Source: a virus
Virus record (IMG/VR): IMGVR_UViG_3300045988_180769
Span: 41,942-105,941 of that record
DNA: 64,000 bases
Direction: 5' to 3' (one strand)
Part shown: one piece after another, positions 4,253-52,649 of the stretch
Layout: the number at the start of each line of letters is the position of its first letter
Numbering within the stretch: the stretch's first letter is position 1
Notes under the pieces: model-generated
Seen by the model: only the letters and a program-made list of their open reading frames with translations
Database searches by the model: none
What the model was told of the DNA's origin: nothing
Made by a program: the position numbers and the translations under genes

Positions 4253-4267
4253 ATATCTTTTTCTTAA

Positions 4268-9706: not shown

Positions 9707-9760
9707 CTTATTGTTATTTACTGCATAAAAATACTAATTAATCTTTTAATTACAAACTCC

Positions 9761-33976: not shown

Positions 33977-34645
33977 TTATATTAAGTGTTTTTGTACTTT
34001 TGGTGAAGAAAGCGCTTTTTGAATTCTTTCCTGAATAGAATTAATATCTTTTTTATAAATCCAAACATATCCATTACAAGAATTGAACTCTCCTTTGCAA
34101 CATTTACCTATACTCATGTTATCAAATCCTAATTCTCTTTTAATTTGATTTCTACTATTCCAACTTTTAACAAAATTTCCCTTTAAATCATATTGCAACA
34201 CTTCCTCTCTATTCTTATGACCTAAAGAAAGATTTAATTTTTCTTCTTCTGTATGAAGAATCCCTTTGTTCCAGACTCCTTTTATTTTTGCTCTTAATTT
34301 GATTTTTTCAGAAATTGAATTTCGAACTTCTAATGTAGGATTACTTTGACCATCTCCTCCAAAAGTGTTGTTTGTTAAATTAAATCCAAAACTCTTATAC
34401 AAAGCTATATAATGTATTTCCCAAAAATTAGAATCTGATTCTTCTACTATATCTATAATATTCATCAAAGGTCTAATATTTTGTTTTAAAAGAGATCTGA
34501 TCCAAGCTAATTTTTTAGATGTAGTTTTGCATTCAGAATCATAAATATGTCTTTTTAATCTTTGTTTAAGATTAATAGTCTTCCCAATGTAACGAATGTT
34601 GTTTTTAGGATACTCTAAACTATATATGAAAACTTTTCTTTCCAT
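33977..34645 (-). CDS. GIY-YIG homing endonuclease (I-TevI-like, free-standing)
   Basis: FIYSLEYPKNNIRYIGKT...RLKRH (GIY-x10-YIG...R) and an N..FGGDG segment. C-terminal NUMOD/IENR-like DNA-binding repeats (GHKNREEVLQYDLKGNFVKSWNS...CNGYVWIYK). TAATG overlap with the upstream gene. Confidence 0.8.
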   Translation of the reverse strand: MERKVFIYSLEYPKNNIRYIGKTINLKQRLKRHIYDSECKTTSKKLAWIRSLLKQNIRPLMNIIDIVEESDSNFWEIHYIALYKSFGFNLTNNTFGGDGQSNPTLEVRNSISEKIKLRAKIKGVWNKGILHTEEEKLNLSLGHKNREEVLQYDLKGNFVKSWNSRNQIKRELGFDNMSIGKCCKGEFNSCNGYVWIYKKDINSIQERIQKALSSPKVQKHLI

Positions 34646-36106: not shown

Positions 36107-37618
36107 TTAGATACCTTCGTCACCAATGTTAACGATACGAACGATCTTAGCAGGTTGATACAGAACTGGAGTTCCATAATTCAAAATTGCAAATCTACGA
36201 GAAGGAGCTGTGATAGCAAAATCCATCTTCATAGTATCTGCGAATTGCAGATATTCATTGATCTGGTTATCGTTGTAATAAACAAGAGCTGATTTCGTAC
36301 CAGCGATAATACGATTACGATCGCGAACACAATTGGCTGCAGCTCCATCATAACCATTAGCCAACTGAGCAACTGGAACTTCAAAAATTGGATAGTAATC
36401 AGTTGTGTCATTCAATGCAGCATCTTTCTTGGTACGATAGATAACAAAACATGTTGCTGCATACGCTCCACCTGTACCTGCTGTAAATCCAAATTCAACT
36501 GATTCTGTACCAGTTACAGCCTGTGCTACAGTAGTGATATTCAAAGGAGCTGATTCACCATAACGATTTTTTGCAGTTACCAAATAACCATAAGTACCAG
36601 CATGTTGACCAAAGTTTGTCTTTGTATCACCAGCATTTACTTTAATCGCTGTACCAGCTACAGGAACAACAGGAGCTTTTGGAGAAGTTGATGTTCTGTT
36701 TACTTTGATAGGTTTGCGCTCGTCAAAGAATCGGTCGTTCTTGATATTAATCTTACCAAACTGAGTGGTAACATCATTTACAGATTGACCCATCGTTGCA
36801 CCAGTTACAGATGCCTGAAGACCTACGATAACTCGTTTGCTTTCATGGAACAACTGCACATAGTTATTAAATACAATAGGATTAGAGATGATACGATCAA
36901 TATAACCATTATAAACATTAACAACTACATTAGAAGCATCTTGAATCAACTTGTCATTCAAAACCTGATTCTGTGCATTAATTACAGCAGGTGAATTGAA
37001 ATATGCATCAAGTAACTGTTCAGAAGTCTTACCTTCAGCAGTACCACCATCCATTTCATTTACACCCAACATATGCTGTCTAAAGATACCATCGAACTGT
37101 TCAGGAACACAAGTAGAATCAGCATCTACCAAACGAGTATCAATCAAAGTCTGTAACAAGATAGTCTTGTTTTCAACTTCTTTTGTATACATATTCATAC
37201 CACCAGCCAATCGAGCCAACATCGCAGGATGAGTAACTTGACCAGTCACACCCATGAACTTGGTGATGATTGACTTACGTCTGTATTGAGAATCTGTCTC
37301 TTCAGGTGTCTCACCTTCAGTATTGAAAATACCAATGTTTTCACCATATTTGTACAACTGATTGTACTGATGAACTGTATTGTCAATCTTGTGTTTGGGC
37401 ATTTCTTGAAAATAAACCAACTGATTGAGTCTATTACCAAGAATCTTCAAAACAGAGTCCAAAGATTCAACTTTCAGACCACCACCATTGTTGATCTGGT
37501 TGTTGTATTGCATACCAGTCTCAAGACCAGCTTCCATTGCTTTCAAGATGTCTGATGCTGCAATTCCATCCATCAAATCGACACCTGTACCACTGTTAGT
37601 ATAATTGTATAAATCCAT
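36107..37618 (-). CDS. major capsid protein (503 aa)
   Basis: Order protease-scaffold-this gene, size, and a strong terminator downstream. No family motif named with certainty. Confidence 0.75.
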   Translation of the reverse strand: MDLYNYTNSGTGVDLMDGIAASDILKAMEAGLETGMQYNNQINNGGGLKVESLDSVLKILGNRLNQLVYFQEMPKHKIDNTVHQYNQLYKYGENIGIFNTEGETPEETDSQYRRKSIITKFMGVTGQVTHPAMLARLAGGMNMYTKEVENKTILLQTLIDTRLVDADSTCVPEQFDGIFRQHMLGVNEMDGGTAEGKTSEQLLDAYFNSPAVINAQNQVLNDKLIQDASNVVVNVYNGYIDRIISNPIVFNNYVQLFHESKRVIVGLQASVTGATMGQSVNDVTTQFGKINIKNDRFFDERKPIKVNRTSTSPKAPVVPVAGTAIKVNAGDTKTNFGQHAGTYGYLVTAKNRYGESAPLNITTVAQAVTGTESVEFGFTAGTGGAYAATCFVIYRTKKDAALNDTTDYYPIFEVPVAQLANGYDGAAANCVRDRNRIIAGTKSALVYYNDNQINEYLQFADTMKMDFAITAPSRRFAILNYGTPVLYQPAKIVRIVNIGDEGI

Positions 37619-37650: not shown

Positions 37651-38346
37651 TTATTTAACAAATTTTACATTGTTCTTTTCATACATATAACGAGCTAAAT
37701 CTTCGCCCATTACATCTGCTTCAGGATTTGTCAAAAAAGCGAGTGCATCATCCTGTAGAGATTTTCTGATAATATCGTCTGCACCATCCAAAGCCTTTTC
37801 AATCAACTTTGATGCCATCGGACGTTGAGTAACAATGTTTACTTCATACTTATCGTTTTCGTCTTTTTCAAAATTCATTGCCTTTTCGATTGCACGAAAA
37901 TTGTTTAAGCCTTCAGATTTGAAAGAAGGAGTAGAACTTCCGATCTTATCCAACTTTTGATCCATTCTTTCAACAGATTTCTGTAAACTTTCGATAATAG
38001 GAGCAAAAACAGATAAAGACTTCTGAATTGTCGCATTTACAGATTTCATCATTTCTTCCTGATCTTCATCGTCATCAGACTTTTCGATTCCTTCTGCATC
38101 ACGATCTTCCGCAGTGTCTTTTTCATCTCTTTTTACTTTCTTCTCTTTCTTTACAGCTTCTCTTTCGAGTTTATCAATGTCTTCTTCTTGTTTTGTTTCA
38201 GACTCATGATCACCTCGCGCAGCACGATCCTCCGATTTCTCAAGATTGATATCACCAGAGTCAATTCCTTTCATAATATAATCGTCACTGAATCCGATAC
38301 TTTTAAGGAACTTTACAGTTTCATTGTTTTCATAATTTACTTTCAT
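37651..38346 (-). CDS. scaffolding protein (231 aa)
   Basis: Highly acidic and helical (EEDIDKLEREAVKKEKK..., DDDEDQEE); lies between the protease and the capsid gene. Confidence 0.65.
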   Translation of the reverse strand: MKVNYENNETVKFLKSIGFSDDYIMKGIDSGDINLEKSEDRAARGDHESETKQEEDIDKLEREAVKKEKKVKRDEKDTAEDRDAEGIEKSDDDEDQEEMMKSVNATIQKSLSVFAPIIESLQKSVERMDQKLDKIGSSTPSFKSEGLNNFRAIEKAMNFEKDENDKYEVNIVTQRPMASKLIEKALDGADDIIRKSLQDDALAFLTNPEADVMGEDLARYMYEKNNVKFVK

Positions 38347-38400: not shown

Positions 38401-39183
38401 TTATTTCTTCGAATTCTGAACAAAATCGTTCAAAACATTTAAAGATATGCGACCCTCTATGCATTTCTTATATAATGTCTTAAAGATTTCATCATTTATA
38501 TTGTTAGTAGGTCTTACTCGAATGGAGAAGTCTTTGTCTATCGTAATGATATGACCATTCTTTTCCATTTCAAGTAAAACTTTTGTTGTCTTGAAATCTT
38601 TATCTGTTTCAAAATCATAATCAATATAATCCTTAGATTGTTTTCCTTTGACAATATCTGCAAACGCGTTTGCATTGACTGGCGTCATTGTCATAGCAAC
38701 ATTAGTAATGAGAGCTTTTGTGATTCTTTTAGGATTTTTCCTATCTCGTTCGAGAGCTTTTCCTTCAATACTGAAACCTGGTTTTCTGTCTGTACCTGAT
38801 TCTTTCATTTCGAGAGCTTTATCGTAGAACGCTCTCGCTTCAGGAGATTTCTTCCAAAGTTGACATTTTACATAGAACTTATTATTATCAACTTTTGCAG
38901 ACAATGGCGCACCAATCCAAAAACGAGATTTATTAATTGGTGATCGTGATGGTAAGTGATCAAGATTGATCAAACCATGTTTGAGAAAACGATCAATGAT
39001 GAAACCATTTGGCTCCATTGATTCACCTTCATCGTCTTCTTCATTATCAGAGGCCAATCCTTCGAAGATCATCTTCTCATATCTCCGATCATCCCCAATA
39101 GGAAAGTTCAGAGGATTAAAAGAATGTGACTTCTCAAAATCAGCCTCAGCAAAAAAATTAAATTTATCTCCTACGTGGAACAT
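38401..39183 (-). CDS. prohead serine protease, HK97 (S78/U35) family
   Basis: LINLDH (catalytic His context), PGFSIEGKAL (Ser), ITNVAMTMTPVNANAFA (conserved C-terminal strand). Confidence 0.75.
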   Translation of the reverse strand: MFHVGDKFNFFAEADFEKSHSFNPLNFPIGDDRRYEKMIFEGLASDNEEDDEGESMEPNGFIIDRFLKHGLINLDHLPSRSPINKSRFWIGAPLSAKVDNNKFYVKCQLWKKSPEARAFYDKALEMKESGTDRKPGFSIEGKALERDRKNPKRITKALITNVAMTMTPVNANAFADIVKGKQSKDYIDYDFETDKDFKTTKVLLEMEKNGHIITIDKDFSIRVRPTNNINDEIFKTLYKKCIEGRISLNVLNDFVQNSKK

Positions 39184-39193
39184 TTGTCTCTTT

Positions 39194-40042
39194 TCATAAT
39201 CTCAACGAATTTATGAAAATGTCTATGTACTTATCAATCAACTCATGACACCTAACTCTATTCCAGTCTTCTTCTCTTACTTTCTTCTTCATTCCCATAA
39301 GAGCACCAAATAAAGCTGCATTGGTATCAGTATCTTCTCCATAATTAATAACTTCACATAAGTCTTCAAACAGAGAAGTTGACTTGTTTTCCTGAGCTAA
39401 ATAATTATCAATCACGAGATTATATGTGTTGATCACATCACCCTTATTATCATAATCGTTTATCTCTACATTTTCAAGAGGCAAATCTCGCAACAATTTT
39501 TGAAATATGCAACAAAGTTTAGAAGCAAAATTGAAACATTTTATATTATTATGTGTATACCCACAAAATAAATCCATTCTTTCTCTTATGACTTCTGGTG
39601 ATTCCTCAAGAAAATAAATAGCCAAAGGTAATGAGTAAAACAATGCTCCATTTCCCATTCTGTCTGTTCTTGGGCAACCTCTCATTCTTATTGATTCAGA
39701 AGTTTGGTTTCCTATATCAAATAACTCTACACCTGCATTAAATTTTCCTTTATAATACCATAAATTGAGGTTATTTTCATATCTCTTATGAATATCCATC
39801 AATCTTTTAGATGGGTATGAAAAGGCATCTATTAAACATAATAAAACAGATGTATCGTCTGACCACGTTCCTTCTATCTGTCTATGAACTCCTCCTGATG
39901 AAAAAGAAGAGCACTTAAAAGTGCCCTCTTTTTTAAATTCGAATGGAACTCCGAGTGCATCGCCTAAAATGTAAGCTCGAATACTATTTCTTATTTTTTC
40001 TGTCTTCGTCATTCTCGAATTCTTTAAGATTCTTAACTGCAT
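39194..40042 (-). CDS. ADP-ribosylglycohydrolase (ARH/DraG family)
   Basis: IRAYILGDALGVPFEF, GTWSDDTSVLLCL, MGNGALFYSLPLAIYF, YGEDTDTNAALFGALMG. Alternative start ATG at 40012 (MTKTEK...). Confidence 0.85.
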   Translation of the reverse strand: MQLRILKNSRMTKTEKIRNSIRAYILGDALGVPFEFKKEGTFKCSSFSSGGVHRQIEGTWSDDTSVLLCLIDAFSYPSKRLMDIHKRYENNLNLWYYKGKFNAGVELFDIGNQTSESIRMRGCPRTDRMGNGALFYSLPLAIYFLEESPEVIRERMDLFCGYTHNNIKCFNFASKLCCIFQKLLRDLPLENVEINDYDNKGDVINTYNLVIDNYLAQENKSTSLFEDLCEVINYGEDTDTNAALFGALMGMKKKVREEDWNRVRCHELIDKYIDIFINSLRL

Positions 40043-40148
40043 TGTTAACCATCTCTTCTGTTCCTTTTTTCTTCTCCTCTTCTGTAGGATTATGGACGAT
40101 CGTTACTATACCAGGATCGCTCCATCTTGAATTTGTTTGATTTTCCAT
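39984..40148 (-). CDS. small ORF (54 aa, MENQTNSRWSDPGIVTIVHNPTEEEKKKGTEE...), below the track threshold
   Basis: Hand translation. Its ATG sits at the same spacing from the conserved promoter-leader cassette as the ATG at 56476. Overlaps the ARH start region. Confidence 0.4.
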   Translation of the reverse strand: MENQTNSRWSDPGIVTIVHNPTEEEKKKGTEEMVNNAVKNLKEFENDEDRKNKK

Positions 40149-40182
40149 CTTGAATTTGTTTTTAGTTATTGATCTTTTTCTT

Positions 40183-40195
40183 TATCTAAAGATAC
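40183..40195 (-). promoter_or_regulatory. promoter box GTATCTTTAGATA plus conserved leader (40149-40182)
   Basis: A 24-nt leader (gtttttagttattgatctttttct on the plus strand) is identical to 56484-56507, and the box is identical to the one at 60212-60224. Confidence 0.55.
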
Positions 40196-40234
40196 ACCTT
40201 TTGGACCAATGTAGCAACGATTACTTGAAAAAGA

Positions 40235-42415
40235 TTACACTAATTCGACAACAATAGAATTCGTTCCTTTCGCTACAACTTTATACTTACTGTTTCTTTG
40301 TACAACATATTCTAATTCTGCAATTTGATTATTAACATTAGATACTTTATCTCCTTTTTTGGCTAATAAAGTTATTTGAAGATCATTTCCAAATTGTTTT
40401 AAGTGCCTCAACGAAAACGAACTAAAACTCTTGTCTTCTATAATAGAACCAACTTCTGCACTCAACCATTCATTTAAAATATTCAAATTAGATGGTTTTA
40501 TTTCGACTCTTCTATTTAAAATTAAATTTTCTTCACAAGGATTTTTATTTATAAGTGATTCAATCTTTTCCACTCTATCTGCAATAGAATCATTTTTAAC
40601 TTGTCCATAATTATAATTTCTTATTGCACTATATTCTTGCCCCATATAAATTTTTATCGCTTTCAATTCTTGTTTTGTTGCGTTCAACTTTTCACCTTGT
40701 TTATCGTAATACTTTTGTGCTTCATACAAAAGTTCCTTAGAATCTAAATCAAAAGGTGCAACAAAATGTTTATATTCAACACCATTAAAATTGTGATATA
40801 AAACACCATTCGCAATTGGAAGATAACCTGATTCAACAAGCAACTTGTTTACTTCGACTCTTCCTTTTTCATGCATATGTCCATATTTTTCAAGAATCTT
40901 GTTAAAATTACGTTCTTCTATTGCTTCCTTAATTATTTCTATTGTAGACTCAAAATCTTTTTTCTCATTACCTTCCTTGAGTTTAAAATCTTCTACAGAT
41001 TTAAACGCATCTTCTAATCGTTTAGATTGATCTTCATCGAGAGTGTTTGTTAATTTGTTTCTCTTTTCTGTATATTTATTAATTTCCTTTTTATTTTTAA
41101 AATGTAATCCATTAGAAGGGTTGTTATTTTCACCATCTTTTCCAGATTTTGATTCTTCAGTTCCTATCATAGCTATTGGTACATCATAAAGATTGGGACT
41201 ATTTACTGATATATTGTTCTTGAGATTGGTAACTTTATATACTGTACTTCCATTATCATTAGTCACTTTCTCTATGTGATACTTTTTACCATTACGCTCA
41301 ACTTCAGCGATTCCTGAATTAAGAGCATCTTTAATTTTAGACCATTGGACAATACCTGATCCAGGATTCGTCCAATTAACCTTTGTTATCGTTTTTGGCT
41401 TTTCTTCTGGTTTATCCTCTTCCTTTTTAGCATCTGGAATTTGATCTAACATCTCATTTCCTTTTTCTTTTGCTTCATCTAAACTATTTTGATAATTTGT
41501 CATAAGAACTTTCTTTCCATCACTATCAAATGCTTCAATTTTGTAGTGGGTTTTACCAAAAGAATTCTCTTCAGGTTCAATCGTTACGAAAGCACCTTTC
41601 TTTCCATTAAGTGTAACTGGCTTATTACTTACTTTTTCTTCCTTTTTAGGTTCTTCTTGTTTCTTTTCCTCTGGTTTTGGCTCTTTATCTTGTGTCTTCT
41701 CAAATTCTTCTTTAACCCTTTTCTTAAAATCAGCTAACGATTCATAAGGTTTCGATTCCATATAAAAAGAACCTTTCTTTGTTTTATATTTATCGTCACC
41801 TTTCATGTTTAGAACAATTGTTTGTCCATTAGACTTAACATAGGTTTGAGTGATCTTTTTGAAACCATTCATCTCGTTAAGTTTGTTATCAATGTTCTCA
41901 GCAATCTCATTCTTTAACTTTTCAAGTTTAGAATCAAGTGTCTTTTCATCAAGTGGTTTTTGTTCTTCTTTCTTTTTCTTTGATTCAGCAATCTTATCTT
42001 TAATCTTGTTAAGCACCTCTTCATCCAGATCTAATTCACCTTTTTCTTGGGCATCAAGAATTCTTTGAAGTGCTGAAGAAATACCAACTTCTTTATTCTC
42101 CTTATCACCTTTATTTTCTTCTGTTTTACCTTGTCTATTTTCAAGTTCTTTCTTTGCAGCTTCTCTTACTTCTTTTGGCGCATCCTTATCTTTTAATGCT
42201 GCATTTAACTGTTCATCACTCGCTTTAGAAGCATGTTCAGAATGATCAACCTTTTTATCTTTTGATGAGATTTCCTCTTCTTCAGAAGAATTCTTTCCTT
42301 TACCTTTTGGTTTCCATCCTGTTGCTGTTTTTATATAAACTTTACCTCCCCAAGTTTTCTCTGTTCCAACTGGAGATGCTTTCTTTGCCTTTTCAATCAA
42401 ATCAATTAAATCCAT
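40235..42415 (-). CDS. Lys/Glu-rich protein with C-terminal R-S-E ADP-ribosyltransferase domain (726 aa; Alt/C3/VIP2-like)
   Basis: C-terminal approx 175 aa: IKIYMGQEYSAIRNYNYG; LILNRRVEI (Arg, about nt 40508-40513); DKSFSSFSL (S-x-S, about 40412-40429); QIAELEYVV (E-x-E, 40310-40318). Confidence 0.75.
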   Translation of the reverse strand: MDLIDLIEKAKKASPVGTEKTWGGKVYIKTATGWKPKGKGKNSSEEEEISSKDKKVDHSEHASKASDEQLNAALKDKDAPKEVREAAKKELENRQGKTEENKGDKENKEVGISSALQRILDAQEKGELDLDEEVLNKIKDKIAESKKKKEEQKPLDEKTLDSKLEKLKNEIAENIDNKLNEMNGFKKITQTYVKSNGQTIVLNMKGDDKYKTKKGSFYMESKPYESLADFKKRVKEEFEKTQDKEPKPEEKKQEEPKKEEKVSNKPVTLNGKKGAFVTIEPEENSFGKTHYKIEAFDSDGKKVLMTNYQNSLDEAKEKGNEMLDQIPDAKKEEDKPEEKPKTITKVNWTNPGSGIVQWSKIKDALNSGIAEVERNGKKYHIEKVTNDNGSTVYKVTNLKNNISVNSPNLYDVPIAMIGTEESKSGKDGENNNPSNGLHFKNKKEINKYTEKRNKLTNTLDEDQSKRLEDAFKSVEDFKLKEGNEKKDFESTIEIIKEAIEERNFNKILEKYGHMHEKGRVEVNKLLVESGYLPIANGVLYHNFNGVEYKHFVAPFDLDSKELLYEAQKYYDKQGEKLNATKQELKAIKIYMGQEYSAIRNYNYGQVKNDSIADRVEKIESLINKNPCEENLILNRRVEIKPSNLNILNEWLSAEVGSIIEDKSFSSFSLRHLKQFGNDLQITLLAKKGDKVSNVNNQIAELEYVVQRNSKYKVVAKGTNSIVVELV

Positions 42416-42435
42416 AAGACTGCTTTTAAAAGTGT

Positions 42436-42460
42436 TGGCGAACCATAAAGATTCGCCAAT
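42436..42460 (-). terminator. stem-loop TTGGCGAA-(9 nt)-TTCGCCAA then CACTTTTAAAA
   Basis: 8-bp perfect stem between the stop at 42467 and the start at 42415; weak U-tract. Confidence 0.4.
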
Positions 42461-42466
42461 GTTATA

Positions 42467-44218
42467 TTAATGCATTTGTAAACGATACTTGGTTTGCATC
42501 AAATCTCCAAGAAAATCTTCAATCCAAGACATTTCACCAAGATAATCAATATTATCTTTTATAACCTCATGAAAATCTTGTGTTCGCTTAATAATCAAAT
42601 CTACAAGTTCTATAGGATCATTCACATTAATTTCTTCACCTACAATTTCACCTTCTTTAAATCGACCAAACTTGCTTTGACCTGCTTCCATCACTCGATC
42701 TTCGTAATCAGAAAGTGTATCTTCGAGATCATCGAGATATTCATGTTTAGAATTATCTAACTCACCCCAATGAACATTCTTTGTACGAGTTTTTGCTCCT
42801 TCAATAAAATTAGCAAAATCAGCAAATAAACCAGACATCATGTCTTCAGCTTTTTCGATTGTCTCAACAGAATCAATATCAAGTTTACCAGACTTTTTCA
42901 TTTCATTAATCAATGATTTAAACATATCAGCCTGATCAAGATCGTTGAAGTTAATTGTCAATGAAAAACCATTTGTAGACTTTTTAATACCATCGTCATC
43001 TGGTTCTTTTTCTTTATCATCAAGATGTTCTTTACAGATTGTATTTGCATCGTCACAATCCATTGTCTTTTCAACATCATCGTGATCGCCCCAACTTTCA
43101 GGAAGTTCATCTGTAAGTCCAAGTTCTTTCGCTCTTTTCTTAATCCATGCCTTTACTTCACTATCAGGCATTGAAGAAGCTCCTACAAGTCGTATAGCAT
43201 CTTTTAGATCTTGACTGTTGCGAATTGGATATTTTCCATTTGACATCGCTTCGCCTTTCTTGGCGAGATCTTTTCTTTCTTTATGAGAAAAATATGTCTT
43301 ATTGTTAGCTTTTTCAATCTCCTCAGGATGTTTGTCACAATATGCTTTGAACACATTCTGTGAAATTACACCATCATTGAAAGCTTTTTGTATTTTCATC
43401 AAAGGACTGGGTTGAATTTCAAGTCCAAGAATTCTTTTAAGATTATCCTTCATATCAAAAATGAAATCATAATCGTCCAATTCTGTTCCAGGATAAATCC
43501 ATTCAGCTCCAATTTCCTCTTCGCTATCAACTAAAACTGTTGTAGGAGAATCGTCATCTACATGACCCATAAAATAATGAATGATGCAATCTTTTGATTC
43601 AGCGACAGCAACTTCCATTAATGTATCTTCTGGTACTTCAATTCCTGTCTCTTCAAAAAGTTCTCTACATGCTGCTTCACGATAATCTTCACCAGCATCT
43701 ACATGACCTCCAGGAATGCACCATTCTTGTGTATTTCCTCCCATAACACCAGCTCTCTGTAAGATCAATAATTTATCTCCTCTAAAAAGCAATACGTCTG
43801 CATAACGAATCTTTCCAGTCTTTGCTTTAATGATATCGTTATATACAGATTTTGAAATCCTTTTGTTTTTGTAGGATTGTTTTGCATCATGAAGAATTTT
43901 CAAGTCAACAATTGCATCGAAAATCTCTTCATCGTTTTCAAGTCTATTCATCGACTTTTCAATCTGTGATTTTTCTTTTTGCAACTTTGCTACTTTCTTT
44001 GCATGTTCTGTCAAAAAGGAGTTATGTCGATCTCGAACTTCTTTTCTCTCTTCAGTTCCTAAAAGCGATATACTCTTTAAGATTTCACTTTGTTCAAGAA
44101 ATTCCTGAGACATTTCTTCAACTTTATTGTCAATGTCTACAGACTTCTTCAATAATACTTTGTATTCACCAATCTTCTCTTGTGCTGATTGGAGATTTAA
44201 TATTTTTCTGATATTCAT
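42467..44218 (-). CDS. multidomain protein with central Nudix hydrolase domain (583 aa)
   Basis: Nudix box GGHVDAGEDYREAACRELFEETGIEV (about 43641-43718); N-terminal coiled coil. The C-terminal segment KNVHWGELDNSKHEYLDDLEDTLSDYEDRVMEAG weakly resembles the Dps/ferritin helix pair. Confidence 0.8.
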   Translation of the reverse strand: MNIRKILNLQSAQEKIGEYKVLLKKSVDIDNKVEEMSQEFLEQSEILKSISLLGTEERKEVRDRHNSFLTEHAKKVAKLQKEKSQIEKSMNRLENDEEIFDAIVDLKILHDAKQSYKNKRISKSVYNDIIKAKTGKIRYADVLLFRGDKLLILQRAGVMGGNTQEWCIPGGHVDAGEDYREAACRELFEETGIEVPEDTLMEVAVAESKDCIIHYFMGHVDDDSPTTVLVDSEEEIGAEWIYPGTELDDYDFIFDMKDNLKRILGLEIQPSPLMKIQKAFNDGVISQNVFKAYCDKHPEEIEKANNKTYFSHKERKDLAKKGEAMSNGKYPIRNSQDLKDAIRLVGASSMPDSEVKAWIKKRAKELGLTDELPESWGDHDDVEKTMDCDDANTICKEHLDDKEKEPDDDGIKKSTNGFSLTINFNDLDQADMFKSLINEMKKSGKLDIDSVETIEKAEDMMSGLFADFANFIEGAKTRTKNVHWGELDNSKHEYLDDLEDTLSDYEDRVMEAGQSKFGRFKEGEIVGEEINVNDPIELVDLIIKRTQDFHEVIKDNIDYLGEMSWIEDFLGDLMQTKYRLQMH

Positions 44219-44260: not shown

Positions 44261-44677
44261 TTATATCTGATCACTTTTTATGCAAATATTATTCACATAA
44301 AGCGTTTTACCCTTTTTTAATTGAATGCTATAAAAGAAACGATTAACAGTTTCCATCTTCTCAATTCTATCAACAATTGCCACATCTCCATTCCTGTGTA
44401 ACATTGAGTCTCCAATTGTAAGATCTTTAACTATCGTTCCATCAAGTAATTCTTGATCTCCTGAAATACGATCTATCACTCCTTCTTCATTGAAAGTGTG
44501 ATAATACACATTATAAACTGCATCTCGTGGTTTCGCCAATCGTTGATTTATCAACTTGACTTTAGAAAATGACTTTCTGTCAGTTAGGATCAAATCATTT
44601 GGTTTGATATCTTTTAAGAACTTATCACCTTCGATTGTCCTTATTTCTACAAAGTTCGAATTAAATCCACCTTTCAT
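44261..44677 (-). CDS. free-standing Hint-fold (mini-intein-like) protein lacking splicing nucleophiles (138 aa)
   Basis: FVEIRTIEGDKFLKDIKPNDLILT (block A-like), RISGDQELL (block B with His replaced), DLTIGDSML, FFYSIQLKKGKTLYVNNICIKS (blocks F/G-like, no HN-Cys). Confidence 0.6.
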   Translation of the reverse strand: MKGGFNSNFVEIRTIEGDKFLKDIKPNDLILTDRKSFSKVKLINQRLAKPRDAVYNVYYHTFNEEGVIDRISGDQELLDGTIVKDLTIGDSMLHRNGDVAIVDRIEKMETVNRFFYSIQLKKGKTLYVNNICIKSDQI

Positions 44678-44679
44678 GT

Positions 44680-45237
44680 TTATTCATGTATTATTGTTCC
44701 TATTCCATATTCATCAATCCTCAGACCATATTCTATAGGAGCTATGATATTATAAAGTTCTCCTTTGTACTCTTCTTCTTTGATTTCGAGCTTCTCTACT
44801 TTCTTATAACAATAATGACTTTTTTCTCTATGCGACATGTGTTCAGCCATATCTTCAATACTACCATCTATCGCATCTTGATTTAATTCATAGCTCCATC
44901 CTTCTATCGTTGTTAAGATTTCGTCATCTTCAAATTCATCTATAGACTTTTCGTTAATGACAGGATACTTTGCTCCTGGAAGATATTTACATGCGAATAA
45001 CTTTTGATCTTTACAATATGTAATGGTGGCATTTGTTTTTGACAACACTCCATTGTATTGCCCTGATACAATCTTTACAGGATAAAAACAAAAGCTCATT
45101 GAAGGAAGATGATACATTTGAATATAGTCTCCTTCTTTAACATCTTTTATTTTAATTTGTTCCCATCTAACAGGTTCGAGTTCATCATCTCCCTTTACGA
45201 GAACATATACTATCGTATCTCCTATATATCCTATCAT
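44680..45237 (-). CDS. free-standing Hint-fold-like protein (185 aa)
   Basis: YIGDTIVYVLVKGDDELEPVRWEQIKIKDVKEGDYI (block A-like) and a C-terminal ELYNIIAPIEYGLRIDEYGIGTIIHE (F/G-like ending HE rather than HN). ATGA overlap with the MuF gene. Confidence 0.5.
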   Translation of the reverse strand: MIGYIGDTIVYVLVKGDDELEPVRWEQIKIKDVKEGDYIQMYHLPSMSFCFYPVKIVSGQYNGVLSKTNATITYCKDQKLFACKYLPGAKYPVINEKSIDEFEDDEILTTIEGWSYELNQDAIDGSIEDMAEHMSHREKSHYCYKKVEKLEIKEEEYKGELYNIIAPIEYGLRIDEYGIGTIIHE

Positions 45238-47207
45238 ACCTCAAAAGTTTTATCTCCAACATATATTTTAACTTTACTTCTTCTCTCGATCTTTCTTTCA
45301 TAGTTTTTAGGAGGAACAAACATTTTCTCTTCATCGCTCCAAACATATCCTTTTGGAGTATATCGAAGTTGACAGCGACAATTACCTGAAATGCAAATTT
45401 TACCATTTCTCCTAATTATCAATGTATGATTCTTCTCAAGTTCAACATCGTAGATGTATCCATTATAATCAATTTCTTTTGGTTGTAATGCTTCACTTAT
45501 GGCTGTTGTATTAAAACATTCATCAATATAAATTTGATCAAATTTGGATGTATATGTTTTTTGATATTTTTTGTCATACACAACAACTTTACCTGTATTT
45601 CGATAAGAAGGTCTTTTACCTATTTTCAAAATAAGTTCACCGATATCGTCAGCCAATCTTGGACTTGAAGTTGAAAATACTCTATTATCTTTACATTTAT
45701 ATCCATCCCAATCTCTTCCTTTGCGAATTGAACCATCTCCTAATCTAAATGCTTCTAAAAAGATTTCAATACATTCTTTATTAAGTTCTTTGATGTTCTG
45801 TGGTATAAACTTATCGTGTGAATGACCAAATTGTTTCATATAATCCCAAAGCTCATCTTGATCACCTCTATAAAGTCTAATTTCTATATAATTGGAGCAT
45901 TTATTTGCATTTGGAAATAATTGAACACAACAATCAAACATTTTTTGCAAATATTTCTCCTTACTTTGAGCGATATGAATTCTTCTGCTACCATATTCCA
46001 CTGTTGATCCTTCAGATAAAAAATATCCCATAAATTCACAAAACAGTTTTGAATCATATTCTCTCTTATCAAAAACAAATGATTTTACTGATTCACCTTT
46101 CCAATTTGGAATACTTCTCAAAAACCTCGTACTTTTAAAGATATCTTTTTCTGTTCCTAAAAACCATTTGAAATTACTTTTAGCTATCACATGATTATGG
46201 TTTGGAGTTGTCATTAAAGAAAATGATTTATGTTCTCTTAATAACATTTTTCCTTCATATTTTTCTTCGATCCAACCTATAGCTTTACACCATTCACCAT
46301 TTCCATCTTCAAGATTAATGGAGAGGAAATTTTCATCTTTATTTAAATCTTTAAAGAATTTAAAACCTTCATTGGTTAGTACTTCTGTTTTATCGTCATA
46401 ACAAAATGGATGTACAGGTCCGAGCGTTGGTTTCCAATTAGCAACTTTTACACCAATATTGTCTCCATTTGCTATTAAATCAATCAATTTGAAAAGCCTT
46501 GGTTTTGTTCCAATTCCTCCAGTTGTATATAATCGAATACAATGTTTACACGCTCCAGGAAAGACCTCTTTGTACACTATTGCTTCAGAACCATGTTCTT
46601 CCATAATAGTTTGTGCCATTCCAATTTGATAAATATCCTGAAGTTCTGTCTCAACTATTCTTCCCCAATCTCTATTCCAATCGTTTAATGAATGACCAAT
46701 ATTACTCACAATATTTTGAACACTCTTTTTCTTTAAAGTTCCTTCAAGAATTTCTTTTTTAATCGTAGAGTGTTCTAATTGTCGCTGTGTCTCCATTAGA
46801 AGGTTTATTTCTTCTTGTGAAACAGCGTTAGTAATAATATCCTTCATTCTTTGTCCCATACTCTTTATATAAGAGTAAGTTCGAGTTGCTGCAGCATTAT
46901 AAACTGCTTTCTCATGTGTAGATAATGTTTTAAACTGTTTTTTATCTATGAACAAAGAAAAGTCATGATAATCTAAAGATCTTAATTGAGATGGTGATAA
47001 AACTGAAGATAATCTTCCAAAAAGAAAAGATTGATAATATGGAGGTATCTTGTGAAGTTCGTTCTTCCAATTGTATCTATTCTTTATCAATAAATCTTTA
47101 TCCTCAGGAGTAAGAAGACCAACTCCAAGGACATCAGCGACAATCTTTGCTAATCGAAAGTCAACTATTGAAAACAACTGTTGTATATCTTCAGGACTAA
47201 ATATCAT
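45234..47207 (-). CDS. minor head protein, SPP1 gp7 / Mu F family, interrupted by an intein (657 aa precursor, 316 aa after splicing)
   Basis: Exteins join to GPVHPF-CRCQLRY, recreating the MuF signature HPxCRC; upstream GACKHCIRLY. Lies downstream of the portal. Confidence 0.85.
   Translation of the reverse strand: MIFSPEDIQQLFSIVDFRLAKIVADVLGVGLLTPEDKDLLIKNRYNWKNELHKIPPYYQSFLFGRLSSVLSPSQLRSLDYHDFSLFIDKKQFKTLSTHEKAVYNAAATRTYSYIKSMGQRMKDIITNAVSQEEINLLMETQRQLEHSTIKKEILEGTLKKKSVQNIVSNIGHSLNDWNRDWGRIVETELQDIYQIGMAQTIMEEHGSEAIVYKEVFPGACKHCIRLYTTGGIGTKPRLFKLIDLIANGDNIGVKVANWKPTLGPVHPFCYDDKTEVLTNEGFKFFKDLNKDENFLSINLEDGNGEWCKAIGWIEEKYEGKMLLREHKSFSLMTTPNHNHVIAKSNFKWFLGTEKDIFKSTRFLRSIPNWKGESVKSFVFDKREYDSKLFCEFMGYFLSEGSTVEYGSRRIHIAQSKEKYLQKMFDCCVQLFPNANKCSNYIEIRLYRGDQDELWDYMKQFGHSHDKFIPQNIKELNKECIEIFLEAFRLGDGSIRKGRDWDGYKCKDNRVFSTSSPRLADDIGELILKIGKRPSYRNTGKVVVYDKKYQKTYTSKFDQIYIDECFNTTAISEALQPKEIDYNGYIYDVELEKNHTLIIRRNGKICISGNCRCQLRYTPKGYVWSDEEKMFVPPKNYERKIERRSKVKIYVGDKTFEV
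45381..46403 (-). mobile_element. 341-aa intein with LAGLIDADG homing endonuclease domain
   Basis: Starts at Cys269 (CYDDKTEVLTNEGFKFFKDL, block A). Also has MTTPNHNH (block B), two LAGLIDADG motifs (FMGYFLSEGS, FLEAFRLGDGS), and YDVELEKNHTLIIRRNGKICISGN followed by +1 Cys. Boundary codons were verified in the DNA (tgt at 46401-46403, aat at 45381-45383, tgt at 45378-45380). Confidence 0.85.
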
Positions 47208-47404
47208 TCTGTTATCTCAATTATTTTATTAACCAAATCCTTCATCATGTTATTTGTTTGAGTAGCAAACATAACTTGTGCCAATCCTTCATATCCACAT
47301 TGCACTTTTGGATATCGAATAGGATCTTTTGTATGATAAACAATGTTCGAAGTCTTCGACATTTGTTTTACATCTATTCCTTTTATGGTTTTAAATGGTG
47401 GCAT
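47204..47404 (-). CDS. hypothetical protein (66 aa)
   Basis: Lies between portal and MuF; ATG checked; 4-nt overlap downstream. Confidence 0.5.
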   Translation of the reverse strand: MPPFKTIKGIDVKQMSKTSNIVYHTKDPIRYPKVQCGYEGLAQVMFATQTNNMMKDLVNKIIEITE

Positions 47405-47407
47405 TTG

Positions 47408-49141
47408 TTATTTCCATAAGTTCTTTTGATAATACTCAATCGCTGGTTGAAGAATAGGATTATCCATTGATTTATACTTATCAAATGGATTTTCTTCTTC
47501 CATTCCAAAATCACCCTCACCTTCTTCTCCTGGAACGCCCTCTTCTTGACTTTGTCCTGGAACAGAAGCTCCAAACATTTGTTGCTGTTGTTCAGTTTGT
47601 TTTGCAGTTTGGTAAACTTGATTGATAATAATATCTTTTTCTGGATCAAATGGCCTTCCTGAATATTTTTGAAAAATATCCTGCATTGCCACCATACCTT
47701 TATCAAGTTTATCCATATCTAATTTTACTTGTGCTTCTTCATCTTCAACCTCTATTCCAGTAAAAGCGAATTCCCAGTCTTCATCAAGTTCACTAACAAT
47801 GTATTTTGTAATAATGTTCTCAAGGAAAATCAATATTGGTTTTAGACCTTTCTCTCTACTATGTTGCAATCGAGCTTTTTGACCATCCTGTCCAAATATT
47901 TGTGCCTGATCTTTAAACTGAAAACCAAGTTCTGTGGGGTCCATTCGATAAACAGCGCATCCTATAATAATCAAGAATTTGAGCCATTCGTTGAACTCCA
48001 TGTCTCGATTGTTCTTTTGAAGATCAATCCATTCCAGATCAATACCATTTATAACAGGTACTCTATGAGAGTTTTGAACTCCTCTCATTGTTTGAGTCCA
48101 TGCCTGTCTAAATTCGTTTAATGTAGAATTAGAGATGTTCTGGTTCTTTACATTCACAAAGCCCTTTGGTTGAGAACCTTGTGAAAAGAAGTTACCATTA
48201 TATTGCATACCCCACAATATCCAAGTAATGATCTCAACAAGTGTTTCAAGTTCACTCGTTCCATAACCATTCTTTCGAATATTAGAAGTTTTGTTTCTTA
48301 TTCCAAATCCAAGTTCCCATGGATAATACAAGATTGATTCTTGTGTCACTGGATTTTTTAAGATCATATCTTCCCATACCATACAATATCTTGGTAGGTA
48401 ACCTTTGAATCGATACTCTTCATAATTATCCCTTTGTCTTGGATCGACTGTATCTAAGAACCTAATCAAAGATGCATCTACAGCTCTAAACTTCTCTAAC
48501 TCCCAATTTCTATTTCGAAGAAGTTCGAATGCTAATTGATCAAGTGTCAAGCTATCAAAAGTAATCTTTCTAATGAAATCTTGAAATCCATCGATATTGT
48601 CCCATTTCTCATTCCAACCACCATTCTCAAGAAATTCGACAATCTTTTCGACCTTTCTCTTATCTTCGTCAGAAAGATCGTTTGCATTCTTTTCTTGAAA
48701 AAGACCTTTTTTCTTTCTTATAGTGTATCCTTCTTTTTGTTCATCTTCTGAGAAATGCAAAAAGTTTTGAACCTGCTCTATTCGAGTATTAACAATAGCA
48801 CGAATGATATAAATATCACCCATCTTACGAAGAGACTCAAAAGAAAGAACACTCTTTTGACTCTTAAATCCTTTACCATTTCCAGTAAAGTCATTTGGAT
48901 CAAAAAAGATTGATTGTATATGCTTTGGTGCCTTATTTACTTCACCAAGATAAACATTCGCTTTGAATATCTCTGTAGGATCATTTGAATTCAATGATGC
49001 CTGTAATTTACTTTGAAATGCCATTGGTGCTGCTTTTTGCAGTCTATCGATTTCTTCTAAAGAAAGATCGGCCAAACTTGTAATAAAATCTGGCCTATCT
49101 ATTCTTTGAGCATTGTTTCTTTTTCTTCTTTTACTTCCCAT
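47408..49141 (-). CDS. portal protein (577 aa)
   Basis: Size, acidic C-terminus and position immediately upstream of MuF. The track start at 49180 is TTG and overlaps the upstream gene; ATG at 49141 (MGSKRRKRNN...) is preferred. Confidence 0.7.
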   Translation of the reverse strand: MGSKRRKRNNAQRIDRPDFITSLADLSLEEIDRLQKAAPMAFQSKLQASLNSNDPTEIFKANVYLGEVNKAPKHIQSIFFDPNDFTGNGKGFKSQKSVLSFESLRKMGDIYIIRAIVNTRIEQVQNFLHFSEDEQKEGYTIRKKKGLFQEKNANDLSDEDKRKVEKIVEFLENGGWNEKWDNIDGFQDFIRKITFDSLTLDQLAFELLRNRNWELEKFRAVDASLIRFLDTVDPRQRDNYEEYRFKGYLPRYCMVWEDMILKNPVTQESILYYPWELGFGIRNKTSNIRKNGYGTSELETLVEIITWILWGMQYNGNFFSQGSQPKGFVNVKNQNISNSTLNEFRQAWTQTMRGVQNSHRVPVINGIDLEWIDLQKNNRDMEFNEWLKFLIIIGCAVYRMDPTELGFQFKDQAQIFGQDGQKARLQHSREKGLKPILIFLENIITKYIVSELDEDWEFAFTGIEVEDEEAQVKLDMDKLDKGMVAMQDIFQKYSGRPFDPEKDIIINQVYQTAKQTEQQQQMFGASVPGQSQEEGVPGEEGEGDFGMEEENPFDKYKSMDNPILQPAIEYYQKNLWK

Positions 49142-49152
49142 CGCTCTTTTCT

Positions 49153-49719
49153 TTATGCAGTCGTACCAGCTTGTGTACAATTGACAACCATTTCTTTGTT
49201 TGAAACATCCTGAACATATGTCACTGAACCAATCTTTTCAGTTGGATCTGCATTCGCTGCCATAGTGATGGAATCATTGTTCACTGTTACATTAACAAGA
49301 TTGGTTGTTGTATAATCAACATTTTCAGGGTCGCCTTCTGGTTCGCCATTAATCGTCTTCTGTCGAGTAGAAACGATCGTTACTTGTTTGGTCTCTCCTG
49401 TATTAACAAAACTTAATGTTGTTGGTGTCACTGTAAAGGTGTATTCAAACTCCTCTTCAATATCTACCAATATTTGAGCTTTATCGTTTAATCCCTCAGG
49501 ATAGGAAAGTAATTTAAAAGGACCAATAAGAGCCCATTCTTTAAATCGACCAATATTATAAGTCATTCCTGGTTCTATGACTATTCCAAGTGATTTGAAA
49601 TAATCCACATCTCCAACTGTGTTTTCTGTAACAAACACATTCAACTGACTGTCAATACCATCAGTAATCACAGTCAGTTGTTTGGAGTTATCTATATTAG
49701 TGAATAAAAGTCTTAACAT
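49153..49719 (-). CDS. hypothetical protein with C-terminal Ig/BACON-like domain (188 aa); paralog of the next gene
   Basis: N-terminus LTVITDGIDSQLNVFVTEN / PEGLN is shared with 49729-50286. C-terminal TFTVTPTTLSFVNTGETKQVTIVS...VVNCTQ is Ig-like. Confidence 0.55.
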   Translation of the reverse strand: MLRLLFTNIDNSKQLTVITDGIDSQLNVFVTENTVGDVDYFKSLGIVIEPGMTYNIGRFKEWALIGPFKLLSYPEGLNDKAQILVDIEEEFEYTFTVTPTTLSFVNTGETKQVTIVSTRQKTINGEPEGDPENVDYTTTNLVNVTVNNDSITMAANADPTEKIGSVTYVQDVSNKEMVVNCTQAGTTA

Positions 49720-51632: not shown

Positions 51633-52649
51633 TTATTTAAGACTTTCGTATTTATTATTAATAGGAAGATAAACCTCAGCCCAACCACCAATTTTTATTC
51701 TATCAACATATCCTTGTTCTATATTTTTTAATCTGATCCAATAATCGTCTTTACCTACAACTTCAAACTTTGAACCATTTTTTGAATCATTTCTTTGAAC
51801 AATCATTCCAACTTTAACATCTTCATGAGAAAGTTTTTGTGGTCTGTCAGGATTCTCTTTTGATTGAGTTTTTATATCCTTCAAATCTGCTTTAGTATTA
51901 TAAACCTTCTTGTTGTTGTATTTTTCTAATGTTTTCACAACTTGCTCTGGAGACACTTGAACATCGCCACGAGTCATTGTATTTTTACTAAACCACTTAC
52001 CTTCTTTTTTAGTAAATGAAATAGCAATGTTTCCAGTTTGAGCATACTTAACATTGATTACACTTCCATCACCAGAATTATCTAATTCTGATTTTGATAC
52101 AAAAGATTGTTTCTCATCTTTGGATGATTTGGATTCTTCTACTTCTTTCTTCCCAGAACTCGTTCCTTTCTTTTTAAGTCTCCAACCTCTCTCAGTCTTG
52201 ACATATAATTTACCACCATATGTCTTTTCTGTTCCAAGTGGAAGAGCTTTCGCTTTTTCGATTGCATCTTTATCTGCACAATTAATCCCTGCAATGCCCT
52301 TAAAAATGTTAAGATCAGTCTCTTTAAATTTGCGACAAGCATTATCGTCAATGGATTTAAATATTCCATCAGGAATATCAACACCTTCAGTTTGAGCTTC
52401 TCTCCAATACATGATACACTTTGTAAGATCTTCTCTTACCACAGTTACAGGATGAAGTGATGCATAATCTGCAGCAGCGCACGATATTTCATATTCATCA
52501 ATTTCTTGTTTCTTAGACTTTTCCAATACATCTCTTGAAAAAGCATCTACTTGAGACTTTGAAAAACTCTCGAGATTATGTTTCTCAATGAAATCTTGAT
52601 ATTCAAGATAAGTAAATTCTTTTTGATTTAAATTAATCATATGACTCAT
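51633..52649 (-). CDS. Lys-rich hypothetical protein (338 aa) sharing a 33-aa motif with the ADP-ribosyltransferase protein
   Basis: IEKAKALPLGTEKTYGGKLYVKTERGWRLKKKG (nt 52161-52268) versus IEKAKKASPVGTEKTWGGKVYIKTATGWKPKGKG at the N-terminus of the 726-aa ORF. Confidence 0.6.
   Translation of the reverse strand: MSHMINLNQKEFTYLEYQDFIEKHNLESFSKSQVDAFSRDVLEKSKKQEIDEYEISCAAADYASLHPVTVVREDLTKCIMYWREAQTEGVDIPDGIFKSIDDNACRKFKETDLNIFKGIAGINCADKDAIEKAKALPLGTEKTYGGKLYVKTERGWRLKKKGTSSGKKEVEESKSSKDEKQSFVSKSELDNSGDGSVINVKYAQTGNIAISFTKKEGKWFSKNTMTRGDVQVSPEQVVKTLEKYNNKKVYNTKADLKDIKTQSKENPDRPQKLSHEDVKVGMIVQRNDSKNGSKFEVVGKDDYWIRLKNIEQGYVDRIKIGGWAEVYLPINNKYESLK

Follow-up and report, generated by a model that had tools for sequence, protein, structure and literature searches.

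A predicted ADP-ribosyltransferase and its putative eraser among the head-morphogenesis genes of an uncultured phage

We analysed a 64,000-nucleotide stretch of viral DNA (the window; positions 41,942 to 105,941 of IMG/VR record IMGVR_UViG_3300045988_180769) and find, among its head-morphogenesis genes, a predicted ADP-ribosyltransferase (ART; 726 aa, 40235-42415), a predicted ADP-ribosylhydrolase (ARH; 282 aa, 39194-40042) and a gene for a Nudix-Dps protein (583 aa, 42467-44218). We favour, with moderate confidence, the view that these genes form an effector block within a late head operon, comprising an ART of the polyvalent type, an enzymatic antidote to it, and a Nudix effector that would act independently. 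That the ART and the ARH are a cognate writer-eraser pair is, in our judgement, highly probable. A sequence-only reading of the window had proposed the three enzymes; all three open reading frames (ORFs) are present on the minus strand at the lengths claimed, every motif that it quoted is found in them, and its domain calls are upheld by the profile matches given below. It had overlooked a 54-aa ORF, a Dps-like domain, two small genes and an intein, and published precedent.

The 726-aa protein consists of a 40-aa N-terminal motif (nt 42293-42397), a region rich in Lys, Glu and Asp (39% of residues 1-494) and a C-terminal R-S-E ADP-ribosyltransferase domain at about residues 540-726 (nt 40238-40798). 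The motifs YSAIRNY (595-601), NRRV (634-637), SFSSFS (663-668) and AELEY (699-703) place the R-S-E residues at R635, S663/S666 and E700/E702. PF03496 (ADPrib_exo_Tox) is not reported in a Pfam scan of the full-length, Lys/Glu-rich protein; the isolated last 217 aa match it with 40.2 bits (cutoff 23.4, E 3.1e-10), and a phmmer search of the PDB with the ART domain retrieves C2-I, VIP2 and Lmo0066. The R-S-E layout suggested earlier holds residue for residue: the alignment with VIP2 (1qs2) is in register (NRRV/VYRW, SFS/STS, ELE/EKE) with R635 at the position of the catalytic Arg, and the R, S-x-S and E-x-E are invariant across 99 unique homologues (50-100% identical). The AF2 model of the domain is poor, with a predicted local distance difference test (pLDDT) score of 54.5 and Foldseek template-modelling (TM) scores of ~0.4; the top 50 PDB matches of this model are all ARTs of the VIP2/C2-I/C3/CDTa/iota/Lmo0066 kind. 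We assign the C-terminus, on its aligned residues, to the ExE-type ADP-ribosyltransferases of the C2/VIP2/C3 family. Because the motif is E-x-E rather than Q-x-E, which in ARTs denotes arginine specificity, the predicted acceptor is arginine, in agreement with the Arg-specific relatives of the ARH.

By homology, the 726-aa protein appears to be a member of the polyvalent family in a minimal version, with one recognisable catalytic domain plus uncharacterised regions; it has no MuF or min_cap2 match in Pfam or PHROGs. A word-indexed homologue search with the ART domain alone returned only nine proteins, all of them split copies of the same gene that added no independent context. In some relatives (L087:6951-8870 and L090:3882-6437) an N-terminal part is separated from an ART part of 289-308 aa, which Pfam recognises directly; the split may reflect either real fission or a frameshift or assembly error.

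The ARH matches PF03747 with 87.4 bits (cutoff 26.2, E 1.7e-24) and contains GDALGVPFE (27-35), WSDDTS (60-65) and GEDTDTNAA (235-243). The metal-binding Asp/Thr constellation, which the sequence-only reading had singled out as a check, is present (E35, S61-D62-D63 and D237/D239/T240), and these motifs are conserved in 13 unique phage ARHs; in a wider set of 59 relatives, no variation is seen at E35, S61 and T240, and conservation is at least 90% at D62, D63, D237 and D239. The AF2 model, built from 59 sequences, has a pLDDT of 95.6, and Foldseek places it nearest to Tri1 (6drh/6dre, TM 0.80-0.81), Lmo0067 (8za7_A, 0.82) and DraG (0.80), with ARH3 and ARH1 lower. The best PDB sequence matches are Tri1 (6dre) and Lmo0067 (8za7_A); sequence and structure give the same order, and the earlier analogy with the Tre1-Tri1 pair is borne out by Tri1 as best match of the ARH on both counts, alongside Lmo0067. 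Tri1 (NF041672) is also the nearest NCBIfam model, at 59.7 bits against an equivalog cutoff of 490, and the alignment begins only at Tri1 residue 70, the window ARH lacking the N-terminal extension with which Tri1 occludes the active site of its toxin. We therefore liken the window protein to Tri1 in its probable mode of action, not as an orthologue. From its residues and its model, we predict a catalytically intact hydrolase of the DraG/Tri1 type, active on ADP-ribosyl(arginine). Its true start is probably Met11 (40012).

Between the two genes, overlapping the start of the ARH ORF, lies an acidic ORF of 54 aa (39984-40148, minus strand). All ART-positive loci that were directly inspected have an ORF of 53-58 aa in this position, which shares R-W-x-[DE] and KDKK within the phage group of the window; a distant phage (locus L096) has a 57-aa ORF there without evident sequence similarity to it. 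On the basis of its position, we consider the 54-aa protein a candidate non-enzymatic inhibitor or adaptor of the ART, comparable to Bsi, the small inhibitor of a Bacteroides prophage toxin (see below).

The window ART and ARH resemble the two chains of a single solved complex (8za7), an 'ART-ARH type toxin effector-immunity pair', and the closest solved relatives of the ARH are immunity proteins of ART toxins. We examined the distribution of the genes in 4 loci found via the ART protein and 80 IMG/VR loci anchored on the prohead protease gene, scoring each gene by tblastn; 79 related loci were informative. The ART and the ARH are both present in 15 of these and both absent from the other 64, and neither occurs alone, whereas the Nudix-Dps gene is found in all 79 loci spanning the region. 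The ART gene, the small ORF and the ARH gene thus form an accessory cassette that is gained or lost as one, and Nudix-Dps is a core gene. The cassette evolves fast: identities are 38-60% for the ART domains and 54-69% for the ARHs, while the protease stays at 72-86% and the capsid protein at 84-91%. The presence/absence pattern and these divergence rates define the block as a slot for variable effectors, in a head operon that is otherwise conserved.

The contents of the slot and its surroundings differ among the relatives. In ART-less genomes the interval between the Nudix and protease genes is either ~250 nt long or filled by an unrelated ORF of 344 aa (for example L027:8815-9849), and one ART-less clade has a gene for a Zeta-toxin kinase between the portal and MuF-like genes (L027:3334-4263; PF06414, E 3e-35). 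Of the 15 ART-positive loci, 9 encode an ART protein with an N-terminal PBECR1 nuclease domain, which is absent from the window copy. We rejected the idea that PBECR1 replaces the C-terminal toxin in the close group, since PBECR1 is an N-terminal addition and the ART is kept in 134 of 134 relatives.

The order ART, small ORF, ARH is repeated in unrelated phage head modules. In L096, whose ARH is 37% identical to that of the window, a NUDIX+DUF6496+ART fusion of 934 aa (6003-8807) is followed by the 57-aa ORF, the ARH and the protease, scaffold and capsid genes. This fusion is colinear with the two separate genes of the window, has lost the Dps-like domain, and carries an ART of a different subfamily. 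An unrelated siphovirus-like contig (L178) has the order terminase, a 423-aa ORF in the portal position (no Pfam match), Phage_min_cap2+ART, an 88-aa ORF, ARH and scaffold. The ART also lies directly upstream of the ARH in three prophages, L146 (min_cap2+ART), L116 (Mu_F+ART) and L145 (Nudix+ART, Lutibacter; 4598-6589). In bacterial genomes, the gene immediately upstream of an ARH relative encodes min_cap2+ART in Lacrimispora, Mu_F+ART in Lachnoanaerobaculum, NUDIX+ART in Lutibacter and a short ART in Bifidobacterium. Housekeeping ARHs of Collinsella and other bacteria were set aside, because no ART of the window family lies near them and they are uninformative on the pair.

An exhaustive profile search gave only 154 clusters (at 50% identity) of the ART clade; in nearly all of those listed, the ART is C-terminal or close to the C-terminus. 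When 65 ART-family representatives were scanned, 11 had NUDIX in the same chain, others had Kinase-PolyVal, ART-PolyVal, Zeta toxin or ParBc_2 domains, and some members had two ARTs; none of the 65 contained PF04233 (MuF). Since Nudix and ART domains are fused in other lineages, we take a functional or delivery link between the two to be real as judged from these architectures, and the repeated fusion implies that their actions would coincide in place and time. The sequence-only reading had treated Nudix, ART and ARH as a trio; an obligatory unit is contradicted by the 79 loci, all of which have Nudix-Dps and only 15 the cassette.

The Nudix-Dps protein has a coiled-coil-like region (1-135), a Nudix domain (about 138-241), a conserved middle region that includes NGKYPIRNSQDLKDAI (nt 43193-43240) and a Dps-like DUF5856 domain (about 465-583; nt 42470-42826). 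The Nudix domain matches PF00293 over residues 138-241 with 63.4 bits (cutoff 21.1, E 2.8e-17). Its Nudix box, GGHVDAGEDYREAACRELFEETG, at about residues 170-193 (nt 43640-43711), is an exact fit to G-x5-E-x7-R-E-U-x-E-E-x-G-U and is invariant in 67 unique orthologues. Matches in the PDB and NCBIfam are confined to the generic core and fall far under equivalog cutoffs; the nearest annotated phage match is nudE of a T4-like Serratia phage. The C-terminal domain of ~120 aa is of the four-helix type, and its DUF5856 match, weak in the window copy, is stronger in orthologues. It also matches 'putative DpsA' of crAss-like phages (tblastn) and PHROG 858, and has H-x9-H and D-x3-E positions that resemble a ferroxidase site.

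The closest characterised parallel is the Bxa-Bsi-BAH system, reportedly attributed also to Brown et al. 2021. It is encoded within a Bacteroides stercoris prophage's head-morphogenesis region (Alexei et al. 2024, PMC11699363). Bxa is a promiscuous arginine ADP-ribosyltransferase, lethal in E. coli, and has two adjacent antagonists: the ARH BAH neutralises it as an enzyme, and the small protein Bsi does so by binding its active site (PMC11699363). As in the window, an ARH eraser is adjacent to the toxin, and the C-terminal toxin is polymorphic among relatives. Small ORFs without a recognisable fold, one of which binds and blocks the ART, lie beside BAH, and in the window the 54-aa ORF occupies that position. 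The carrier differs: Bxa has an N-terminal MuF domain, whereas the window has a separate MuF-like gene 2.8 kb upstream and a Lys/Glu-rich carrier of the polyvalent type with the 40-aa motif. Homology between the window ARH and BAH is not close (B. stercoris is outside the 80 best genome matches), the small ORF has 54 aa against at least 92 residues in Bsi, and a Nudix-Dps gene is attached, with Nudix and ART fused in relatives. Furthermore, the Bxa system belongs to a known prophage, and the window to an uncultured phage of ~106 kb. By analogy, we regard the window as a variant of the known arrangement that has the same layout, and would follow the same logic, in another carrier and another type of phage.

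The view that no named system combines these activities in this position is consequently wrong for the core of the block, which the Bxa-Bsi-BAH system matches and for which head-encoded ART and Nudix effectors had been predicted (PMC11699363, PMC5512222, PMC9503650). In the passages searched of Iyer et al. 2017 (PMC5512222) and 2022 (PMC9503650), phage ART and Nudix proteins are predicted to be often packaged in the head and injected, and polyvalent proteins are described in which ART, PBECR1, Zeta kinase and Nudix domains occur among or fused to head proteins, as they do in the relatives of the window; such proteins have multiple effector domains, in contrast to the single recognisable catalytic domain of the window copy. 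The same passages call ARHs rare among phages and mention an ART-ARG pair solely as a toxin-antitoxin in Aeromonas phages; they do not describe a Nudix/ART/ARH block in a head operon or a Nudix-ART fusion (PMC5512222, PMC9503650).

Other systems share parts of the arrangement. Tre1-Tri1, of the type VI secretion system of Serratia (6dre/6drh), and Lmo0066-Lmo0067 of Listeria (8za7) likewise pair an ART toxin with an ARH; Lmo0066 is matched by the window ART domain, and Tri1 and Lmo0067 are the best matches of the window ARH. Both pairs are secreted interbacterial toxins, whereas the window genes belong to a phage head operon. In concept the window ART is likened to T4 Alt, a head-carried, injected ART, to which it has no BLAST-detectable similarity, and T4 has no ARH partner for Alt. 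The window Nudix domain is likewise T4-NudE-like, whereas T4 NudE is encoded outside the head operon and has no Dps-like domain. In the MuF polymorphic toxins (Bxa, Apk2), reportedly treated by Jamet et al. 2017, an N-terminal MuF domain is fused to the toxin, and the window ART has no such fusion. The order portal, MuF-like gene, ART, 54-aa ORF, ARH and protease, with other genes intervening after the MuF-like one, fits a MuF-toxin neighbourhood, in which the ARH and the small ORF would have an immunity role.

We propose that the ART is a late product that is packed into proheads and leaves the virion together with the DNA, and that it would then ADP-ribosylate arginines of host proteins and aid takeover, following the logic of T4 Alt; virion delivery of the ART is, taken by itself, slightly favoured. 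An eraser would be needed because a probably promiscuous ART would be produced in large amounts in the cytoplasm while virions assemble. In the producing cell the ARH, transcribed together with it, would strip the modification, the 54-aa protein may block or escort the ART, and the two would jointly shield the phage under assembly and its translation machinery, as in the logic of Bxa-Bsi-BAH and Tre1-Tri1. Nudix-Dps would be a separate, ART-independent effector, probably virion-associated, that may hydrolyse NDP-X substrates such as ADP-ribose, NAD, NAD-derived signals or NAD/NDP-capped RNA.

Several points weigh against this proposal. Direct evidence of packaging is lacking, and no signal for capsid targeting or protease cleavage could be recognised. 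The phage is presumably lytic, and the reason for protecting a doomed cell is not evident. One or two evolutionary events may be all that lies behind the joint presence or absence of ART and ARH, and the ART and ARH identity matrices correlate (r 0.95) no better with each other than with those of the protease (0.94) or the Nudix protein (0.96), which makes co-occurrence within the group weak evidence by itself; we dropped distance-matrix correlation as a sign of ART-ARH co-evolution, as it gives no signal beyond shared phylogeny. Also to be counted here are the poor AF2 model of the ART domain, the absence of any ART, T4 Alt included, that resembles it at BLAST level among 50,697 deposited phage genomes, and the lack of a MuF fusion. 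The ARH does not have the extension with which Tri1 additionally plugs its toxin, the 54-aa protein is far shorter than Bsi and, as far as compared, unrelated to it in sequence, and no substrate can be read from the generic Nudix matches.

The same genes could serve an ART that is not injected but released at lysis as a toxin or fitness factor acting on neighbouring bacteria or the gut epithelium, with the ARH and the small ORF merely keeping the producer alive until release. The gene layout is shared with the Bxa system and the phage inhabits the human gut; Bxa, the closest characterised toxin, hits epithelial cells and is also antibacterial, by a delivery route that is unresolved (PMC11699363). 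Nevertheless we judge this explanation unlikely: the window protein belongs to a polyvalent family whose members are associated with virion delivery, its gene lies between the portal/MuF-like and protease genes, it has no signal peptide or secretion domain, and the genome is ~106 kb long with no sign of lysogeny in the partly examined 64-kb window. A role in which the ARH and the Nudix protein mainly undo host immunity, the former erasing the marks of host ARTs (DarT- or CmdT-like), the latter destroying NAD-derived signals or ADP-ribose, and the ART is functionally unrelated, would fit the retention of Nudix-Dps in all ART-less relatives, which itself implies an ART-independent function. Phage Nudix, Macro and NADAR proteins have been proposed to counter NAD-derived signals (PMC9503650, in the passages searched), and for the Nudix half alone such a role is quite possible. 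As an account of the whole block it is improbable, since the ARH occurs without the ART in none of the 79 loci, the solved structures closest to it are those of immunity partners of ART toxins, and the ART is directly upstream of the ARH in five other phage or prophage lineages. Moreover, ARHs of the DraG/Tri1 type have protein-borne Arg-ADP-ribose as their substrate rather than adducts of DNA or RNA. The earlier suggestion that the eraser counters host ADP-ribosylation is for this reason disfavoured.

A third possibility follows the DraT-DraG logic, in which the injected ART would mark a specific protein early, for instance RNA polymerase, and the late ARH would reverse the mark, the pair being a timer that permits the late programme rather than a toxin with its antidote. 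The ARH fold is equally near DraG and Tri1, and the ART would act early if packaged, with the ARH transcribed late as the gene order suggests. Yet the two genes share one late operon and would be made together, the small intervening ORF parallels a physical inhibitor (PMC11699363), and the ART domain diverges rapidly and is of another subfamily in L096, which is more what one would expect of a conflict effector than of a regulator under fine tuning. We consider such a switch very improbable and retain the late effector block, with the ARH as antidote, as the preferred explanation.

The block lies in a run of head genes, all on the minus strand, in the order portal, MuF-like gene, two small genes, Nudix-Dps, ART, 54-aa ORF, ARH, protease, scaffold and capsid; the gaps of 51, 86 and 10 nt and one overlap are consistent with a single late operon. 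The run begins with the portal gene (47408-49180; PF04860, E 3.7e-16, PHROG 12), followed by a 66-aa ORF from the ORF list (47204-47404), the MuF-like minor head gene that flanks the module upstream (657 aa, 45234-47207), and ORFs of 185 aa (44680-45237) and 138 aa (44261-44677). On the other side, the prohead (head maturation) protease gene (38401-39183; PHROG 1028, E 3.8e-38) begins 10 nt past the ARH stop, and is followed by genes for a scaffold-like protein (37651-38346), named from position alone and without a family match in Pfam or PHROGs, and for the major capsid protein (36107-37618; PHROG 752). The placement of the trio between MuF and protease is correct, with the 54-aa ORF lying between the ART and the ARH and the 185- and 138-aa ORFs between the MuF-like and Nudix genes. 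The 185-, 138- and 54-aa proteins, and the 344-aa protein of the relatives, have no match in Pfam, PHROGs or the PDB. A promoter and terminator scan gave counts equal to the shuffled expectation, with a consensus that leaves Bacteroidales promoters uncovered.

The MuF identity of the upstream gene is weakly supported. It has no Pfam MuF match; its intein-free orthologues, of 316 aa, match 'minor head protein' and 'head morphogenesis' families of PHROG only at E 2e-5 to 1e-3, among them PHROG 115 'minor head protein' and PHROG 595 at E 1e-4 to 2e-5. The window copy is interrupted between ...VHPF and CRCQL... by an intein of the LAGLIDADG type (LAGLIDADG_3 and Intein_splicing matches), which is also present in L096 (3030-4985) and absent from most relatives; another relative has an intein inside its portal gene (L004:2813-5857; 1014 aa). 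The 185- and 138-aa ORFs (together 44261-45237) are conserved, and the orthologue of the latter in the faecal contig MT835500 has a faint Hint-domain (Vint) match. An insertion-sequence gene of the IS605 OrfB/TnpB type (PF01385, PF07282) lies beside the portal gene of MT835500 (L005:6619-7830). Among the structural genes downstream of the capsid gene, the window has a GIY-YIG endonuclease ORF (33977-34645; PF01541, E 1e-8), probably a homing endonuclease, and further downstream, in the same-strand run of structural genes, two very large ORFs (9761-21061, 3766 aa; 4268-9706, 1812 aa).

The source is an uncultured human-gut phage of ~106 kb, with a Bacteroidales species as its probable host. The ART protein is present in identical or nearly identical form on contigs of up to 106 kb, and relatives are viral contigs of 100-108 kb in many gut metagenomes. 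The capsid protein is 71% identical to that of an unannotated human faecal contig and ~33% identical to those of Bacteroides phages DAC16-23 and a Chryseobacterium phage, with a more distant likeness to SPO1-like myoviruses. Searches of deposited phages with megablast and tblastn found only the unannotated contig MT835500, which has neither ART nor ARH; there is no cultured relative and no virion proteomics. No integrase was noticed among the ORFs scanned in the 64-kb window of the ~106-kb genome, in which signs of lysogeny were partly examined.

The N-terminal motif of the ART protein, [IL]EKAxKxxPxGxxxxWxGKxYxKTxxGWxPKGKG at about residues 6-41, recurs in other proteins. One to three copies stand ahead of each effector module in polyvalent ART-family proteins (43 of 148 representatives), and others occur in the portal and Nudix proteins of a Chryseobacterium phage and in a second ORF of the window (51633-52649, minus strand; 338 aa), at residues 128-169 with an E-value of 1.7e-15 in a search with a hidden Markov model of the motif. 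Listed sites are L006:13272-14834 (portal), L006:6497-7204, the Nudix gene of L007, and L096:15993-16844. The motif has no match in Pfam, PHROGs or the PDB, and the 338-aa ORF belongs to no Pfam family. We speculate that the motif may be a virion-association or module-delimiting element, and the 338-aa ORF a possible further cargo protein.

An orphan ARH, 46-48% identical to the phage ARH, is the cargo of a 6.4-kb integrative element of Parabacteroides, which also has genes for an integrase, HTH_17, a Phage_CRI replication protein, T5orf172 and small ORFs. In L092 the element spans 3787-10255, between 67-bp direct repeats (3787-3853 and 10189-10255); further loci listed are L093-L095 and L098 (Parabacteroides faecalis AGMB00274). 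No ART of the window family was detected in its flanks. The orphan ARH is a candidate for acquired immunity or counter-defence against ART effectors, and suggests a host of the phage. A joint reading would connect these observations into a modular cargo system of the head operon: the 40-aa motif would be a tag that docks or delimits proteins bound for the capsid interior, the host ARH could strip the marks of the injected ART, and the Nudix-ART fusion would trim Arg-ADP-ribose to phosphoribose, beyond the reach of ARH-type erasers. We hold this combination to be rather unlikely.

The finding is largely explained by known biology and does not overturn current understanding. It extends the combination of a Bxa-type ART toxin with an ARH antidote beyond the MuF-fused toxins of temperate Bacteroides prophages to a different protein chassis, in an abundant group of ~106-kb uncultured human-gut phages that is represented in many public metagenomes. 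The recurrent Nudix-ART fusion is a lead to a shared site and time of action of the two enzymes. The orphan eraser on the Parabacteroides element is a pointer to the likely host and to a possible ARH-based counter-defence, and the uncatalogued 40-aa motif could offer a means to study or engineer the delivery of proteins by phage heads.

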